DNA of 49,616 nt from a virus, in the IMG/VR virus record IMGVR_UViG_3300045988_013611. One strand, given 5' to 3'. The translations under genes were made by a program, and so were the position numbers. Below are positions 2,995 to 30,995 of the stretch, piece after piece. The notes beneath the pieces are model-generated. The model saw only the letters and a list, made by a program, of their open reading frames with translations. It searched no databases and had not been told where the DNA came from. Each line of letters begins with the position of its first letter. The stretch's first letter is position 1.

Positions 2995-4536
2995 CTAACT
3001 GTTGTTGTAGTGGTTGATGGCGGCGTTCAAGGCGGATTTCAGCGAACCGGAACCCTCGAACAGCGCCGCCTTGATCTCGTTGCCCTTGTTCTGCGCGGCA
3101 GGCAGTGTCCCGTAGCCTGTCCGGTTACTAATGGCCGACCGCGCCCCGTTGAACGTAGCGGCGTAGATGGTAGCGCCGGAACTGACACCCGTATAGGGAG
3201 CGCTGCCGCCCTCGGCCTCTGCCAATTCCTTGATTTTCGCCAGCAGATTGTTCCACCGCGTGGCCGTCAGGTTGCTGATGGGCTGTCCTTTCTTGATGTT
3301 GGCCGCATCCCATGTGGCATTATTCCAGTAGAACAAATCAATTTGTGTCTTTGTCGCCGTCAGTTCCGCGTAGAACCGGCTGGTGCTGTAGCCGTAGTAC
3401 GGCTCGTCCATATCCCTGACCAGCGTCGCCGTGGGCGTGGTAGCTGTGGAATTCTGATAGAAATTGAAGGTATACGGTCTGCCGTACCCCGTGGCCTTTG
3501 CAATGCCCTTCACGGTGATGGTGGAATCCGCGTTTACCGCGATATCGTGGTACACCTTGTCCCGGATGTCCGCCTTGAGGGAGTTGTCCACATACACCGA
3601 AGCGGAGTTGATGCCCGCACCCAGCTTGATGTGCATGGTGTACGTCGTTTTCTCCCAGATGGCGTACAGGTTGATGATAGTGGGACTGCTGGAACTCTGC
3701 GATGTGGCACTGATGGGGATCGTCGTGTCTTTGTAATACGTCGTGGCATTGGAGGTGTAGCCCCAGCCCAGAAACGTATATCCTGCCCGATACGGTGTTT
3801 CCAGTGTCCCCACGTTGAAGTTGATCGACGTGGTGGTACTGCTGGCCAGCGCGGTGTAGTAGTTGTCTGCGCCGCTCTGGTTGGTGAAGGTGCCGCCGTT
3901 GCCCCAAGCCCTCACCCGGTACCAGTACGCCAGCCTTGTGGCTGTCAGGGCAATGTACCGCACTCCGCTGGAATACACATAACCGTCGCCCTCTGAGAAG
4001 TACTTTTTCACAGAGGAAAACGCGCTGTTGGTGTACTCCACGAATTGGTATGGCTCACCGTATCCGCTGTCGTAGTTCAGGCCATACAGCACCGCGTTTG
4101 TGCCGTCCCGCACCGACAGCACCGTGGACTGGTAATCCGAGTTGATGTAGCCGCTCAGCAGACCCGTACTCGTTGCGTTGGCGTACTGCATCCGGTAGCT
4201 TGCCACACCGGTGCCCACGCGGAAGTAGATGCTGTTGGTGTCGTAGCCGGAGCTTCCGCCCGAAGCGTATACCGTAATACTTCGTTTGACGCTGGTGCCC
4301 ACAGAAGGGTCGGACACGATGTTCCAGTCGTTGCCGTTACTGGCGCACTTGGCTCTGGCCCCGGAATAGCCGCTTTTGTAGACGATGCCGTCGATCCAGC
4401 AGTTTGCGCCGGTGGTGACGAACCACGCCTGATACACCGTGGACGTAATGGTCTTGGGGAACCGGCTGTCGTTGCTGACGTGAACAACAAATGAGCTGAT
4501 ACCTGTGCCGCAGCGGAAGGAGATTTCAGTGGACAT
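2995..4536 (-). CDS. Tail/receptor-binding protein with a Listeria-Bacteroides-type (Flg_new-like) repeat
   Basis: 513 aa. YTFLGWGYTSNATTYY...INLYAIWEK repeat signature. Lies downstream of Tal. Confidence 0.55.
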   Translation of the reverse strand: MSTEISFRCGTGISSFVVHVSNDSRFPKTITSTVYQAWFVTTGANCWIDGIVYKSGYSGARAKCASNGNDWNIVSDPSVGTSVKRSITVYASGGSSGYDTNSIYFRVGTGVASYRMQYANATSTGLLSGYINSDYQSTVLSVRDGTNAVLYGLNYDSGYGEPYQFVEYTNSAFSSVKKYFSEGDGYVYSSGVRYIALTATRLAYWYRVRAWGNGGTFTNQSGADNYYTALASSTTTSINFNVGTLETPYRAGYTFLGWGYTSNATTYYKDTTIPISATSQSSSSPTIINLYAIWEKTTYTMHIKLGAGINSASVYVDNSLKADIRDKVYHDIAVNADSTITVKGIAKATGYGRPYTFNFYQNSTATTPTATLVRDMDEPYYGYSTSRFYAELTATKTQIDLFYWNNATWDAANIKKGQPISNLTATRWNNLLAKIKELAEAEGGSAPYTGVSSGATIYAATFNGARSAISNRTGYGTLPAAQNKGNEIKAALFEGSGSLKSALNAAINHYNNS

Positions 4537-26761: not shown

Positions 26762-26991
26762 CTTTTTCCCTCCGGCGTACTTAACGCCGCCAGATTAAAC
26801 CGCAGCCCCTCATTGGCCTGCCGCAGCGCTTCTATCTCCCGCTGCTGGTTCTCGATCAGGTCAGCGGCGGCAAACTGCAATTCACTTTCGCAATCATCGC
26901 CCGCCGCAGGGCACTCTGTACAGTGTTTGCAAGAATCTTCACCGTTAAATGCACAGCACCGCAGCGCGGTCACGATCTCGTCTCTTGTCAT
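26758..26991 (-). CDS. Hypothetical Cys-rich protein
   Basis: Start moved to ATG 26991 with RBS GAGGAGGAA. Confidence 0.5.
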   Translation of the reverse strand: MTRDEIVTALRCCAFNGEDSCKHCTECPAAGDDCESELQFAAADLIENQQREIEALRQANEGLRFNLAALSTPEGKR

Positions 26992-26992
26992 G

Positions 26993-27493
26993 TCATTCCT
27001 CCTCGCCAAATTTCATGAAACACCCCCAAAATGTCTGTGATTTCTTCCCGCTGTGGTGTCCAAACAGAGGACGTTCTCCGATTGCCGCCCACACATCTGC
27101 GGCGGGTATCTGAGTTTCAGCCCATTTGAAAATCAGTACGCCGTCAGGCTTCAATACGCGCATACACTCTTGAAATCCGTCATGCAGCATTTCGCGCCAG
27201 TTCTCGCCGAGCTGTCCGTACTTCTTCCGCATCCACGCATTTTCTCCAACGCGGCGCAAATGCGGTGGGTCAAAAACAACAAGAGAAAATGTGTTGTCCG
27301 AAAACGGCAGATCCGTAAAATCACACTGTATGTCTGGATGCACGACGCAGGTTCGTTCTGAATCGCGGTTTGTGCTTTTCCAAATACCCGTATATTCCTC
27401 GTCCCGAGCATCGCAGTAGATTGCGGCAGGATGGCTTTTGTTAAACCATATCGTCCGAGATCCGCAGGTGGCATCAAGAATTTTCTTTGTCAT
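26993..27493 (-). CDS. Small SAM-dependent DNA methyltransferase (DPPH type)
   Basis: 166 aa. ILDATCGSRT (motif I-like) and VVFDPPH (motif IV-like). Confidence 0.65.
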   Translation of the reverse strand: MTKKILDATCGSRTIWFNKSHPAAIYCDARDEEYTGIWKSTNRDSERTCVVHPDIQCDFTDLPFSDNTFSLVVFDPPHLRRVGENAWMRKKYGQLGENWREMLHDGFQECMRVLKPDGVLIFKWAETQIPAADVWAAIGERPLFGHHSGKKSQTFWGCFMKFGEEE

Positions 27494-27494
27494 G

Positions 27495-28094
27495 TCATTC
27501 CTCCCCAAACCATTTTTTCGTCACCGCGATGGGAAATGGCTCGATCTCGCTTGCCCAGCGCGCCGTACCTTTCCCGTGTATGCGCTCAAGTTGTTTAATT
27601 TCTGTCTCAAGGTCATGTATTCTTTGCAGTAGGGCTACGTCAACCATTTCTTTAGTAACCGCATTATGTATGGCTCGATTATGATGGACAACCTCGCTCC
27701 GGCTGTCCCGTTGGCCAAACCACCTCAAAGGTCTGCCTATCATCTCTTCTGCAATCAAGTCGTGTTCCCGAACGTAACCGTTTGACCTTGCCTTGTGATG
27801 TCCCGGAATGTAAAGGCATTTATACCCATTTTCAATTCTTACTCCGCCTTTCCAGTAAGCATTATTCTCGCGGGTTTGCTCTCTTTTCGCCGCCGAGCGC
27901 GCCTTAATGCCGTGCCTTCTCATAAAGTTAAAAACGATTTTTTGCGTTGTATGTAACTCTGCGGCTATTTCCATCTGAGTCATGCCTCGTTCATACATTG
28001 CTTCCACGGCATTTAAATCTAATTTTGTCCCCCGGTTTTTCTGAGCCTCAATCCAAGCCGGATCGGCGCATCTTTTCTTTGCGCTTTCAGACAT
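27495..28094 (-). CDS. HNH homing endonuclease (HTH plus HNH_3-like), with a C-terminal 19-22 aa copy of the upstream methyltransferase segment
   Basis: GYVREHDLIAEEMIGRPL...EVVHHN. Probable start ATG 28094 (RBS AAGGAAA), overlapping the stop of the upstream gene. AT-rich. Confidence 0.7.
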   Translation of the reverse strand: MSESAKKRCADPAWIEAQKNRGTKLDLNAVEAMYERGMTQMEIAAELHTTQKIVFNFMRRHGIKARSAAKREQTRENNAYWKGGVRIENGYKCLYIPGHHKARSNGYVREHDLIAEEMIGRPLRWFGQRDSRSEVVHHNRAIHNAVTKEMVDVALLQRIHDLETEIKQLERIHGKGTARWASEIEPFPIAVTKKWFGEE

Positions 28095-29862
28095 TTTCCT
28101 TATTGTTTCTTCCGAAAAACTTTTCAAAGTCTCCCTCCTTCCCCACTTCTTCATCGCCGAAATGCTTTTTGGTCACGGCAATGGGGAATTGCTCAATTTC
28201 AGAACTCCACCGGCAGCACTCTGCTCCGTATATTCTCGCCCAGCAGACATTAAACCCCGAAATGCCGTCGAACAAGCTCCCCAGCGTCGCGCCCTCCGGC
28301 AAATACCGCGCCATGCGCCGTAGCATCCAGTCCCAGAATGGCAGGGCGATGGAGTTACCCAGCGCCTTGTACTTCGGGCTGTCCGCGTCCTTGTGTTTCT
28401 TGCCCTTCTCATCCGTCCAGTCGCCAATGTCCACCCATCCGTCCGGGTATCCCTGCAAGCGGGTACATTCCAACGGCGTCAATCGGCGCACCACCATTTT
28501 CTGCACCGGGTATGTCTCCGCGTCCTCCCGGTACGCACAGTTCGCCTTTGCCCGAAGCGTGTGCGCCACGTCCGGTGTTGCCCCGCACACCAGCATATCG
28601 TTGTATGCGTCCTGCCCGTTGTAGCTCCCTGCATGAGCGCCGGGGGAGAGCGTACCCGTCACATCTTGGTATGTCAGAGGCACTTGATTGCCACCTGTCC
28701 ACATTCGAGCCTGCAACGCAGGGACCTGCTCTCCGCACTCGCGGATGACGTCACAGGCGTGTGTCATGTCCAGCGCCACCACCGCCGGGGTTTGGTTCGT
28801 CCCGCTGGGCGCAGCCGCCAGCGTGGGCGACACTTCCTCACCGTACCCGATGCCGGCCGCCTGTGCGCCCTGTCCGGCCTTAAAACCGGCACACAGTACG
28901 GCCTCGCGGTTCAGACCACTGTTTTCACGGGAACTGAGCGTAGGTGAAACGCCGTTACCATCGTACACGCGCTGGCTCTGTGCGTCCCAAGGTGTCATGC
29001 ACATTACCCCGTGGCGGTCGCCAGCGGTCAGTGTAGGGGACGGGTCGCCCTCTTTTCCGATGCCAAGACCGTTGCCGCTGCCGTCATGATTGCGGCTCTC
29101 TCCGCCGCCCTGCCATCTGGTGGCTTTGTCGTTGATGGGGATAGCCACAAATATGGCAGGATTGTTCACACCACCGCCAACACCGCCTTGCAGTGTGGGA
29201 GATTTTCCGTTTGTGTCAAAAATGCGCTTGCTTTGGCAATCCCAAGCCGTCATGCAGTCCCCGACTGCCGGATTAAAACCGCTTTCAGCCGCTCCGGCAG
29301 GTTCTTCCCCCGACGCTCCGCTCTCCGCAATATCCCCTGGCAGGCTTTCGCCGTCAAATTGTATTTCGGATGCGGTGTCTCCTCCAAAATCTGCGACAAC
29401 CGAGATACGACGACGGCGTTGGGGCACTCCCCAGTATTGCGCGTCGTGAGTTCGCCACACCACGCTCCATCGTCCTCCCACTTCATCGTGATAGCCCCCC
29501 CAACTTGGCCAGCCTTTTTCAGGCACTTCAATACCGGGGGCTTCCGGCTCGACGATTTTGATGATCTCTTCGAGCACGGCTGCGAAGTCTTTTCCTTTGT
29601 TGCTACTAAAGGCGCCGACCACGTTTTCCCACACGAGATACCGAGGTCTGACCATGTCACCTGTCCGTCCATTCCGTTTGTCCTCCGCTCTCATTTCTTT
29701 TACGATGCGCACCTGCTCCATAAACAGGCCGCTTCGCGCTCCCGCCAAACCGGCGCGTTTCCCGGCGATGGATAAATCCTGACAGGGGCTACCGCCGGTG
29801 ATGCACCACACTGGCTCGATCTCCGCACCGTTTATCTTGCAGATGTCTCCCAAATGAACCAT
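28087..29862 (-). CDS. DNA cytosine-5 methyltransferase with circularly permuted motif order and an expanded multi-TRD region
   Basis: HLGDI (III), GGSPCQ (IV), LVWENV (VI), QRRRR (VIII), RLQGYPDGW (IX), LGNSIALP (X), then LFDGISGF (I, 28252-28272) and SEIE (II) at the C-terminus. Confidence 0.8.
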   Translation of the reverse strand: MVHLGDICKINGAEIEPVWCITGGSPCQDLSIAGKRAGLAGARSGLFMEQVRIVKEMRAEDKRNGRTGDMVRPRYLVWENVVGAFSSNKGKDFAAVLEEIIKIVEPEAPGIEVPEKGWPSWGGYHDEVGGRWSVVWRTHDAQYWGVPQRRRRISVVADFGGDTASEIQFDGESLPGDIAESGASGEEPAGAAESGFNPAVGDCMTAWDCQSKRIFDTNGKSPTLQGGVGGGVNNPAIFVAIPINDKATRWQGGGESRNHDGSGNGLGIGKEGDPSPTLTAGDRHGVMCMTPWDAQSQRVYDGNGVSPTLSSRENSGLNREAVLCAGFKAGQGAQAAGIGYGEEVSPTLAAAPSGTNQTPAVVALDMTHACDVIRECGEQVPALQARMWTGGNQVPLTYQDVTGTLSPGAHAGSYNGQDAYNDMLVCGATPDVAHTLRAKANCAYREDAETYPVQKMVVRRLTPLECTRLQGYPDGWVDIGDWTDEKGKKHKDADSPKYKALGNSIALPFWDWMLRRMARYLPEGATLGSLFDGISGFNVCWARIYGAECCRWSSEIEQFPIAVTKKHFGDEEVGKEGDFEKFFGRNNKENV

Positions 29863-29865
29863 GTC

Positions 29866-30141
29866 TCAATCTCCAAACACCACGCCGCACTCGTCCTTCA
29901 GCACATCCTTGATGTGCTTGCGCTTGATACGGCCCTCGTTGATCTCCTCCGCCAGCTTCTCCAGGCACTCGTACAGGTACGCGATGCTCTGCGTGTCCCG
30001 GCTGTCCGCTGTCTCCTCTTGGACGTGCCAGCCGCACTTGTCCATCAGCACCATCGCCACCATGTCCATGTTTTCCTGCGTACCCTTCAATCGGCCTTGC
30101 ATGACCAGCCGTTCATCGCGGGACAGATGTTGCTTGCCCAT
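29866..30141 (-). CDS. Hypothetical protein (91 aa), paralogous at its N-terminus to 31009-31161
   Basis: Start moved to ATG 30141 with a TGATG overlap. N-terminus MGKQHLSRDERLVMQGRLKGTQE. Confidence 0.55.
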   Translation of the reverse strand: MGKQHLSRDERLVMQGRLKGTQENMDMVAMVLMDKCGWHVQEETADSRDTQSIAYLYECLEKLAEEINEGRIKRKHIKDVLKDECGVVFGD

Positions 30142-30995
30142 CATTCGGCCTCCACCGGTTTGCCATCTACCAGTTTGTACCAGGTGTCTGCCTTGATGTC
30201 CTCGCCATCTACGACAAAAGCTTTCCACTCTTTGATGTCCCAATTGTCCGCGTTTTCCTCACAGATCACCAGCACAGCACCAAGACCGCCTTTAATCTTC
30301 ACATCGTTACCGCGAACAAGGCCGCATCCGTTTTTGCCAACAGAAACAGATCCTTTTGCGGTGGCTGCGCCGCTATCGCCTGCGGTGGCTGCGCCGCTAT
30401 CGCCTGCGGTGGCTGCGCCGCTATCGCCTGCGGTGGCTGCGCCGCGATAGCCTGCGGTGGCTGCGCCGCTATCGCCTGCGGTGGCTGCGCCGCGATCGCC
30501 TGCGGTGGCTGCGCCGCTATCGCCTGCGGTGGCTGCGCCGAGATAGCCTGCGGTGGCTGCGCCGCGATAGCCTGCGGTGGCTGCGCCGCTATCGCCTGCG
30601 GTGGCTGCGCCGCTATCGCCTGCGGTGGCTGCGCCGCGATAGCCTGCGGTGGCTGCTTTCTGGTCGGTATGTTCCATTGTGGTATGCGCCTTGACGTACT
30701 CAACGTGAGCCTTTACCAGACCGGGAATACCGATCTCCGCGCCCACCGTAAGCTTCTTGGCAACGCGCTTGCTATCATCTTCGCGTTCGTCGCTCACGCC
30801 GTCCATTTCCACTTCGCAATACCGGCTTCCTTCGCCGGGCGCGTAATAACTGAGCACATCCAACGGCGCTTCACAAGCGTGCAAGCCCTGATTGCACAGT
30901 TTCACTTTGTCAACTTCCTGCGTGCCGCCGATCTCATACTGCAAACCTCTGCACTGCAAATTCTTGTCGAAACCCTTGTAAGCTTTCATTCTCAT
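30141..30995 (-). CDS. Phage protein with a conserved N-terminal domain (KAYKGF..L.CRG.QY...GLHAC..PLDVLSYY) and 12 octapeptide repeats
   Basis: 284 aa. The repeat is AATAG(D/Y)(S/R/L)G. I recognise the N-terminal domain as a recurrent phage DUF but do not assert its number. Confidence 0.65.
   Translation of the reverse strand: MRMKAYKGFDKNLQCRGLQYEIGGTQEVDKVKLCNQGLHACEAPLDVLSYYAPGEGSRYCEVEMDGVSDEREDDSKRVAKKLTVGAEIGIPGLVKAHVEYVKAHTTMEHTDQKAATAGYRGAATAGDSGAATAGDSGAATAGYRGAATAGYLGAATAGDSGAATAGDRGAATAGDSGAATAGYRGAATAGDSGAATAGDSGAATAGDSGAATAKGSVSVGKNGCGLVRGNDVKIKGGLGAVLVICEENADNWDIKEWKAFVVDGEDIKADTWYKLVDGKPVEAE
30358..30656 (-). repeat. Tandem 24-bp repeat, 12 full units plus an 11-nt partial unit (coding)
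   Basis: The plus-strand unit is GCGGTGGCTGCGCCGCTATCGCCT. As read by eye, variation is confined to 3 nucleotide positions within two codons. Confidence 0.95.

Follow-up and report, generated by a model that had tools for sequence, protein, structure and literature searches.

The subject of this analysis is a cytosine-5 (C5) DNA methyltransferase gene carried by a viral DNA stretch of 49,616 nucleotides (nt), IMG/VR virus record IMGVR_UViG_3300045988_013611, which at its full length is called the window below. An open reading frame (ORF) of 591 amino acids (aa) on the minus strand (28087–29862) presents the conserved motifs of these enzymes in the order III-IV-VI-VIII-target recognition domain (TRD)-IX-X-I-II-III', in which III' denotes a second, degenerate motif III. 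The permutation is a genuine circular one, broken between motifs II and III. As judged from their motif order, the gene and its family are natural enzymes of Type B, a topology otherwise described for engineered enzymes alone. The explanation as a whole, that of a functional natural Type B enzyme from a large family, with an origin by duplication and truncation and with a local HNH cassette, is considered quite probable.

A first-pass annotation of the window had described a 591-aa ORF that runs from motif III to motif X and only then presents I and II, and this description is supported by profile and pairwise alignments; Pfam, an alignment with M.HhaI and AlphaFold were used to characterise the ORF. 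All its motifs lie on the minus strand. The protein opens with MVHLGDICK, with a stop codon two codons 5' of the start. Motif III (HLGDI, residues 3–7; 29842–29856) is thus N-terminal and aligns with G59-D60-I61 of M.HhaI and with Pfam columns 46–50. Motif IV (GGSPCQ, with the catalytic Cys27; 29779–29796) aligns with the PCQ of HhaI, and it is followed by motif VI (ENV, residues 79–81; 29620–29628) and motif VIII (QRRRR, residues 148–152; 29407–29421), the last also placed by the HhaI alignment. PCQ, ENV and QRRRR are all invariant among the 22 closer sequences of an alignment denoted A1. A variable region of several short TRD-like modules, with repeated ..SPTL.. units (28528–29346), then intervenes; it was recognised by module-sized insertions and deletions in A1 and by low AlphaFold confidence. 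Motif IX (RRLTPLECTRLQGYPDGW; 28435–28488) was assigned with HhaI and an alignment of 114 sequences, and motif X (LGNSIALP; 28339–28362) contains G502, N503 and S504, which are invariant in these 114 sequences. The X-to-I linker (residues 509–529) leads to motif I (LFDGISGF, residues 530–537; 28252–28275), near the C-terminus, and on to motif II with helix B (SEIEQFPIAVTKKHF, residues 554–568; 28159–28203), which aligns with the E40 region of HhaI. The chain ends in the tail GDEEVGKEGDFEKFFGRNNKENV (28090–28158), in which III' (G-D-F) was identified by Pfam columns 48–50, a nucleotide test and the existence of a family of such tails. The full C5 motif set is present: PCQ, ENV, QxRxR, FxGxG, the acidic residue of motif II, the aspartate of motif III, and motifs IX and X.

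The position of the break was determined by phmmer against solved structures. Query residues 528–573 correspond to HhaI 15–58 (motifs I and II), residues 5–58 to HhaI 59–112 (motifs III and IV), residues 141–157 to HhaI 154–170 (motif VIII) and residues 457–476 to HhaI 270–289 (motif IX). These blocks place the break at M.HhaI residues 58/59, exactly between II and III as had been proposed. The proposed reading of FDGISGF as motif I also holds, with LFDGISGF falling on F18-F24 of HhaI in profile and pairwise alignment. Pfam PF00145 matches the protein with 103.3 bits against a cut-off of 22, in two stretches, residues 3–101 lying on profile positions 46–131. By both Pfam and the HhaI alignment, the canonical linear order from I to X is not that of the 591-aa ORF. 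A separate upstream ORF that supplies motifs I and II, the circumstance under which the permutation was to be given up, was not found: because the upstream ORF, of 125 aa, has no similarity to methyltransferases in Pfam or PHROG, no separate ORF supplies I and II.

Natural permuted C5 enzymes are known, namely M.BssHII, M.Alw26I, M2.Eco31I, M.Esp3I and M2.BsaI, together with 22 more from REBASE (Slaska-Kiss et al. 2018, PMC5944983). This 2018 survey of REBASE recorded a single natural topology, whose break falls within the variable region, and no natural Type B enzyme. Among engineered permutants of M.MpeI and M.SssI, those of Type B (cp62M.MpeI and cp58M.SssI) were the most active, with an activity similar to the wild-type level (PMC5944983). 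As related in the same paper, directed evolution of a tandem-duplicated M.HaeIII yielded active permutants, whose first residue lies between II and III or within III; redundant peptides are attached to some (Peisajovich et al. 2006, via PMC5944983). A literature search, to which REBASE itself did not belong, returned no later report of natural Type B enzymes.

The window protein has its N-terminus between II and III, and its native termini are joined via an X-I linker of about 20 residues. It shares the position of the N-terminus and the joined native termini with cp62M.MpeI, cp58M.SssI and the evolved M.HaeIII permutants, and the redundant terminal peptides of some of the latter resemble its III' tail. 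These are laboratory constructs, whereas the window gene is natural, with its linker of about 20 residues and a long, multi-module TRD. The Type H enzymes (M.BssHII, M.Alw26I, M2.Eco31I, M.Esp3I and M2.BsaI) are likewise permuted C5 enzymes with X before I, but their break lies in the variable region (IX-X-I..VIII). As had been noted in the first pass, the order in the window differs from that of M.BssHII: the chain starts at motif III, and its TRD is uninterrupted and lies inside the protein. One relative, P0133, does have the Type H arrangement or comes nearer to it, and yet possesses the linker of the window's family. Canonical Dcm-type phage enzymes (Javan191, NatCom_6392 and the C5 half of P1 Dmt) share with the window protein LGSLFDG.GGF, SEIE.FP..VT, HLGD, GSPCQDLS, WENVPGA, DAQ.WGV.QRRRR and RRLTP.EC.RLQG.PD, as well as an embedded +1-frame ORF, but read from I to X and are about 27–41% identical to it. 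Rearranged motifs on the same Rossmann-like fold are also seen in plant DRM2, where VI-X precede I-V. The beta-class amino-methyltransferases, again on this fold, have the order IV-VIII, TRD, X, I-III; they methylate an exocyclic nitrogen with a DPPY-type motif, as opposed to PCQ chemistry.

The architecture was also examined by structure prediction. AlphaFold with the 22-sequence alignment gave a predicted local distance difference test (pLDDT) score of 34 and was set aside; AlphaFold2 with 114 sequences was used. In the latter model, pLDDT is about 90 or more over most of residues 1–170 and 455–580, residues 527–568 form a strand-helix-strand-helix unit, and the variable region (residues 173–445) has low confidence. 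The best Foldseek matches are M.HhaI, M.MpeI and M.HaeIII, over the colinear part. In the arrangement as understood here, the first two elements of the S-adenosylmethionine (SAM)-binding half, strand 1 with motif I and strand 2 with motif II, stand at the C-terminal end behind the helix of motif X; the chain begins at strand 3 (motif III) and ends past motif II with the short redundant III' tail. Because the native termini of the fold lie side by side, the linker of about 20 residues (..RMARYLPEGATLGS..) connects X to I, and the usual catalytic domain would form. Motif I residues F531, G533, G536 and F537 and motif II residues S554 and E555 are invariant in the 114-sequence alignment, down to 34% identity. 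The 591-aa ORF is probably a functional C5 methyltransferase.

The permuted order is widespread. Among the 120 best homologues from a collection of 5.8 billion proteins, which are 57–100% identical to the window protein in the best local alignment, all 120 have the order III..X-I-II. A query of 118 residues that spans IX, X, the linker, I and II was run against clusters formed at 50% identity; at E<=1e-30, the IX-X-I-II junction was matched by 668 cluster representatives. The match is colinear in all 150 of the 668 representatives that were listed, with X ahead of I by a median of 29 residues, and in 147 of these 150 the protein ends shortly after motif II. A scan of IMG/VR gave at least 584 confirmed relatives, and nearly all of the 80 loci kept cover query residues 1–571. 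The identical order is found in loci L001–L004, among them Faecalibacterium phage FP_Toutatis, which has been isolated, and in related phage contigs from the human gut, the end usually coming right after motif II. A second contig encodes an identical protein, and 99%-identical proteins occur elsewhere. When genome contigs were scanned for the junction peptide with very specific patterns, nine loci were found in metagenome-assembled genomes (MAGs), which serve as hints at the hosts and are no census. They are mostly binned to Clostridia (Oscillospiraceae and Lachnospiraceae), with one each in Kiritimatiellae and Staphylococcaceae, and come from human, rabbit and ruminant guts. To judge from these homologues, the architecture is fixed in a large, stable family of gut phages and prophages of gut Clostridia and is not a one-off.

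The unusual motif order could in principle be produced by an assembly artefact or chimera that fuses the 3' portion of a methyltransferase gene with the 5' portion of the one that follows. Apart from the order itself, nothing speaks for this, whereas the junction recurs unchanged in FP_Toutatis, an isolated and sequenced phage, as well as in independent assemblies that number in the hundreds and stem from various studies and hosts; the probability of an artefact is considered negligible. An artefact or a one-off relic is excluded, because the architecture is a family trait that includes FP_Toutatis.

The first-pass annotation had suggested that the locus may be a rare intermediate of duplication and truncation, 'caught with its scars'; on this reading the event would be recent and the remnants at both ends decaying. 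Two observations favour this: such intermediates exist in laboratory evolution (PMC5944983), and the tail is truly homologous to motif III. Between tail and N-terminus, 19 of 36 nt are identical, where the null expectation is 10.1 +/- 2.6 and only one of 560 in-frame windows is equally good. The G-D-[F/I] of the tail lies on Pfam columns 48–50, the same columns as the N-terminal G-D-I. The tail can therefore be called a genuine, somewhat degenerate duplicate of motif III. The Pfam alignment of tailed C-terminal segments reaches profile positions 50–60, whereas that of the tailless variant stops at 37, and the C-terminal Pfam score is 12.4 bits for the tailless variant, 13.4 for the window and up to 30.3 for the best-preserved tails. 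AlphaFold2 gives residues 571–580 a pLDDT of about 90.

Homology to motif III thus stands, but decay of the tail does not. A tail of the type HFGDE..G..GD[IVWFYL]..[KE][YF].. was found in 31 of the 120 close homologues and in 30 of the 150 cluster representatives, and the motif G..GD[IVWFY]..[KE][YF] is kept at 50%-cluster distances. By these counts, roughly one family member in four has kept the III' tail, which is therefore a conserved feature and not a decaying scar. The tail was also considered as mere read-through into the HNH insertion described below. The same tail occurs with no HNH gene, a different HNH gene or a Dam-like gene downstream, and it aligns with motif III in Pfam; this candidate was rejected. 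Another candidate, in which FG[DE]EE-stop is a mere junction motif encoded by the ribosome-binding site (RBS), is only partly true: an 18-nt repeat at two junctions is real, but FGDEE is native sequence, since M.HhaI reads NFGEK after motif II.

At the other end of the gene, the supposed N-terminal scar 'VFGD-stop-D' is present as sequence but is the C-terminus of an unrelated protein. The upstream ORF of 125 aa (29866–30243, minus strand), which is clade-specific and has no Pfam or PHROG match, ends in ..KDECGVVFGD-stop. This end is conserved but limited to the clade of the window; other clades have unrelated sequence 5' of the same M.HLGDI start. As a side observation, in L005 (IMG/VR; about locus 560–630) an ORF of the 125-aa type runs without a stop into the start of the methyltransferase (..EEYGVVFGDLDMVHLGDI..), possibly a gene fusion. 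With the upstream scar belonging to another protein and absent from other clades, and with the tail motif conserved at such distances, a rare intermediate with decaying remnants is very unlikely. The same motif order throughout a very large family also contradicts it. Because the same architecture and tail type recur in hundreds of diverged clusters, the permuted state is old and maintained.

The general model of tandem duplication followed by truncation, as distinct from its application to the present locus as a rare intermediate, is plausible and has been strengthened by P0133. This is a complete 540-aa gene, seen on three contigs with unrelated flanking genes, with the order TRD-IX-X-I-II-III-IV-VI-VIII-TRD and its termini inside the TRD. 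Its X-to-I linker is the same as that of the window, with 79% identity over the junction, and its II-III join reads RFPG-MKHLGDI; canonical relatives read ..SEIEPFP.RVT.KR...V.HLGDV... One subfamily therefore holds at least two natural permutation topologies with one fusion linker, together with a III'-tailed and a trimmed variant. Two topologies with a shared linker, accompanied by tailed and trimmed variants, match an in-frame tandem fusion followed by alternative truncations. Most likely the family goes back to a single event, in which two copies were fused in frame and in tandem and then truncated at both ends. Variant B, to which the window gene belongs, would have kept the redundant C-terminal III', variant A would have lost it, and the lineage of P0133 would have been cut inside the TRD.

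A second feature of the locus is an ORF in the +1 frame inside the methyltransferase gene, the 'B-ORF', of 140 aa (29250–29672, minus strand), which was identified by frame conservation among relatives. Of 63 distinct relatives, 62 have an open +1 frame, and every one of the 63 has stops in the third frame. Over the last 24–44 codons, conservation among close relatives is 0.77–0.81 in the +1 frame versus 0.56–0.74 in the methyltransferase frame; for deep pairs, the values are 0.50–0.67 versus 0.08–0.38, and 0.12–0.29 in the third frame. Streptococcus phage Javan191 and Christensenellales phage NatCom_6392 have the same ORF, with the motif ..LS.ILE..P.KY.LS..AC.GIL.R..RRGK.LP..L..AL, again in the +1 frame of methyltransferase genes of canonical order. 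A tblastn search with the +1 ORF matched 134 phage records. Among the matches listed, the annotated ones lie mostly under methyltransferase genes, and they include Vibrio, Mycobacterium, Pseudomonas and Caulobacter phages and dmt of coliphage P1. In P1 dmt (L102, locus 1567–2060), the +1 frame was confirmed directly as an open stretch of 163 codons with the motif; L091 and L092 also carry the ORF. For Salmonella phage SJ46, the match coordinates imply the same +1 offset. In four divergent genes, GAGG-N9-11-ATG precedes the first methionine of the ORF.

The N-terminal 'motifs' of the +1 ORF are out-of-frame shadows of conserved methyltransferase motifs, and the linker that follows motif VIII is where its C-terminal module lies. 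Frame comparison indicates that this C-terminal module (LSQILE..P.KY.LS.KAC.GILRRA.RRGK.LP..L..AL) is under purifying selection. Sequence searches of Pfam, NCBIfam and the PDB gave no match for the ORF, and the literature search found no report of an overlapping ORF in cytosine methyltransferase genes. The wider proposal, that an abundant natural Type B family preserves stages of the permutation and at the same time hides a translated +1-frame gene of about 130–160 codons, from motif VI to past motif VIII, is regarded as evenly balanced.

A homopolymer of seven G residues (C7 on the plus strand; 29495–29501, minus-strand feature) lies 8 nt upstream of an in-frame ATG of the B-ORF. Tracts of G7, G8 or G9 occupy this site in 42 of 84 related loci. 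In FP_Toutatis the tract is G9 and the frame is shifted, which explains why its methyltransferase is annotated as split (gp14 and gp15). Insertions or deletions at a second tract (for example at gene nt 682 of L002) place the region from TRD to C-terminus in the frame of the +1 ORF in six of 85 loci, and likewise in L103; in L002 and L103 the methyltransferase is split into two ORFs. The G-tract may serve phase variation, act as an RBS for the +1 ORF, or both.

Two-piece C5 enzymes are known: in M.AquI the ORFs overlap. L002 and L103 are divided at the corresponding position, whereas the window gene encodes one continuous chain. It is conceivable that slippage at the G-tracts toggles the product between the 591-aa chain and a split form consisting of III-VIII and a B-module-TRD-IX-X-I-II part, in the manner of M.AquI or of phase-variable methyltransferases. 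The frequency of the G7–G9 tract, the frame-shifting G9 in FP_Toutatis and the six loci and L103 with the downstream part in the +1-ORF frame are in line with such a switch, as is the complementation of the engineered fragments Mpe[62-279] and Mpe[280-61] (PMC5944983). However, the window has the first tract only, which leaves its reading frame undisturbed; the phase is kept in 77 of 85 loci, and canonical relatives with the +1 ORF have no G-tracts. Toggling is therefore regarded as unlikely.

Several points weigh against a functional Type B enzyme with the proposed history. The score for TIGR00675 (dcm), 98.2, is marginally below the cut-off of 100.65; this is expected because the permuted protein matches the profile as two out-of-order pieces. 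Motif I reads G-I-S-G and not G-x-G-G, and across the family G, A and S alternate at this position. The predicted packing of motifs I and II against X is read from confidence scores and secondary structure. A few relatives are frameshifted at the G-tracts, and about 20 of 84 loci contain a 4-nt insertion between the Cys and Gln codons of PCQ (TAGA in 18 loci and TAGC in two). The local context of this insertion is constant, and more than 550 codons downstream of it remain free of stops (e.g., L002 3060–3087 and L085 ~3395–3405). Together, the PCQ insertions and the G-tract frameshifts imply that loss of function is tolerated, and perhaps selected, in part of the family. Recombination may have spread the insertion as a null allele, or some form of recoding may be involved. 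Recoding of the stop codon was rejected as an explanation of TAGA and TAGC, since the frame would still be lost if TAG were translated.

The many relatives with a PCQ insertion or a G-tract frameshift could be taken to mean that the window gene, too, has lost its activity and is decaying as a pseudogene, or persists as a remnant that binds DNA but has no catalysis. Against this, the ORF of the window is intact, including PCQ at 29779–29796, and its catalytic and SAM-binding motifs are invariant across 22 to 114 homologues. The identical protein on a second contig and the 99%-identical copies elsewhere also disagree with decay, and engineered enzymes of the same topology are fully active (PMC5944983). 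A pseudogene or a remnant is accordingly held to be quite improbable, and a functional Type B enzyme is the preferred reading.

Relatives in A1 gain or lose whole modules of the variable region, each with a ..SPTL..-like core. Multispecific phage C5 methyltransferases of the SPR and phi3T type contain tandem TRDs with one target specificity each. The presence or absence of module-sized segments among relatives hints at multispecificity, with an exchange of modules that would reshuffle the target sites. With its string of small TRD modules, the enzyme would probably methylate the phage genome at several sites and thereby protect it from host restriction. Two relatives contain inserts of another kind. 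In P0071, Hint, LAGLIDADG and intein-splicing Pfam domains lie within the methyltransferase, which identifies an intein, and P0263 has an insert directly after ENV that looks intein-like from the sequence alone.

The interval originally assigned to the methyltransferase, 27495–29880, does contain the 591-aa ORF, but it also contains a separate ORF of 219 aa that had been overlooked. This ORF (27495–28154, minus strand) encodes a free-standing HNH endonuclease, and its start overlaps the tail of the methyltransferase in another frame. It matches PHROG HNH families 7545, 20891, 8446 and 10730 with E values of 1e-12 to 5e-10, and has no Pfam match at E<=0.01. The HNH gene of the window is absent from the 84 related loci and so is unique to the window among the 85. 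The last 30 codons of the HNH ORF (27495–27587, minus strand) are a remnant of the ancestral, variant-A 3' end of the methyltransferase (ERIHGKGTARWASEIEPFPIAVTKKWFGEE-stop), fused in frame and recognised by nucleotide identity to relatives: 93% to the 3' end of the L026 gene and 85% to that of L002. HNH ORF residues 159–218 match the methyltransferase fragment family phrog_16427.

The mosaic is also seen in a comparison with L026, to which the window is 92% identical over most of the gene and 78% identical across IX-X-I; there is no match from about 28262 to 27587, and identity returns to 93% over 27587–27487. L012 and L053 have the variant-B 3' end of the window up to 28130 and then a different HNH gene of 173 aa, L010 and L043 have a Dam-like gene at the HNH insertion site, and in L017 a variant-A end is directly followed by a methyltransferase of 171 aa. 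The site 3' of the permuted methyltransferase is an insertion hot spot. On the simplest reading, a cassette with a variant-B 3' end and an HNH gene took the place of a portion of a variant-A 3' end, of which 30 codons stayed behind the HNH gene, fused to its ORF. The mosaic is consistent with homing and co-conversion of a diverged, presumably cleavage-resistant flank. Free-standing phage HNH homing endonucleases are similar in that the HNH ORF directly follows a gene and the flank is duplicated and diverged (in the window, 79% versus 93% identity to the ancestral type); they travel with a resistant copy of the flanking segment, whereas in the window the insertion footprint alone is seen.

Further downstream lies a cargo cassette with a gene for a small SAM-dependent DNA methyltransferase of 171 aa (26993–27493, minus strand; phrog_954, E 2.5e-68), which L002 and L026 lack. 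It is bracketed by the two copies of an exact 18-nt direct repeat (TTGTCATGTCATTCCTCC; 27487–27504 and 26985–27002), found by a repeat search, which spans an RBS and a start. On the other side, two genes 5' of the permuted methyltransferase, a DUF7666 protein (30141–30995, minus strand) contains a long, near-perfect run of a 7-residue repeat (GAATAGD/Y..).

The evolution of new protein topologies has a textbook test case in the circularly permuted C5 methyltransferases. A large natural Type B family removes the puzzle of the absence of this type in nature and offers natural enzymes with which the SAM-affinity idea can be approached. The sister topology and the variant with the redundant tail would be natural counterparts of the duplication-truncation intermediates known so far from directed evolution alone. 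For annotation, profile-based methods split or truncate permuted genes: the gene of FP_Toutatis is annotated as a pair of methyltransferases, and in PHROGs the fragments form families of their own. Predictions of phage methylomes for the phages of gut Clostridia are therefore affected. Should the +1 ORF be translated, well-studied phages, P1 among them, would possess a gene that has escaped recognition.

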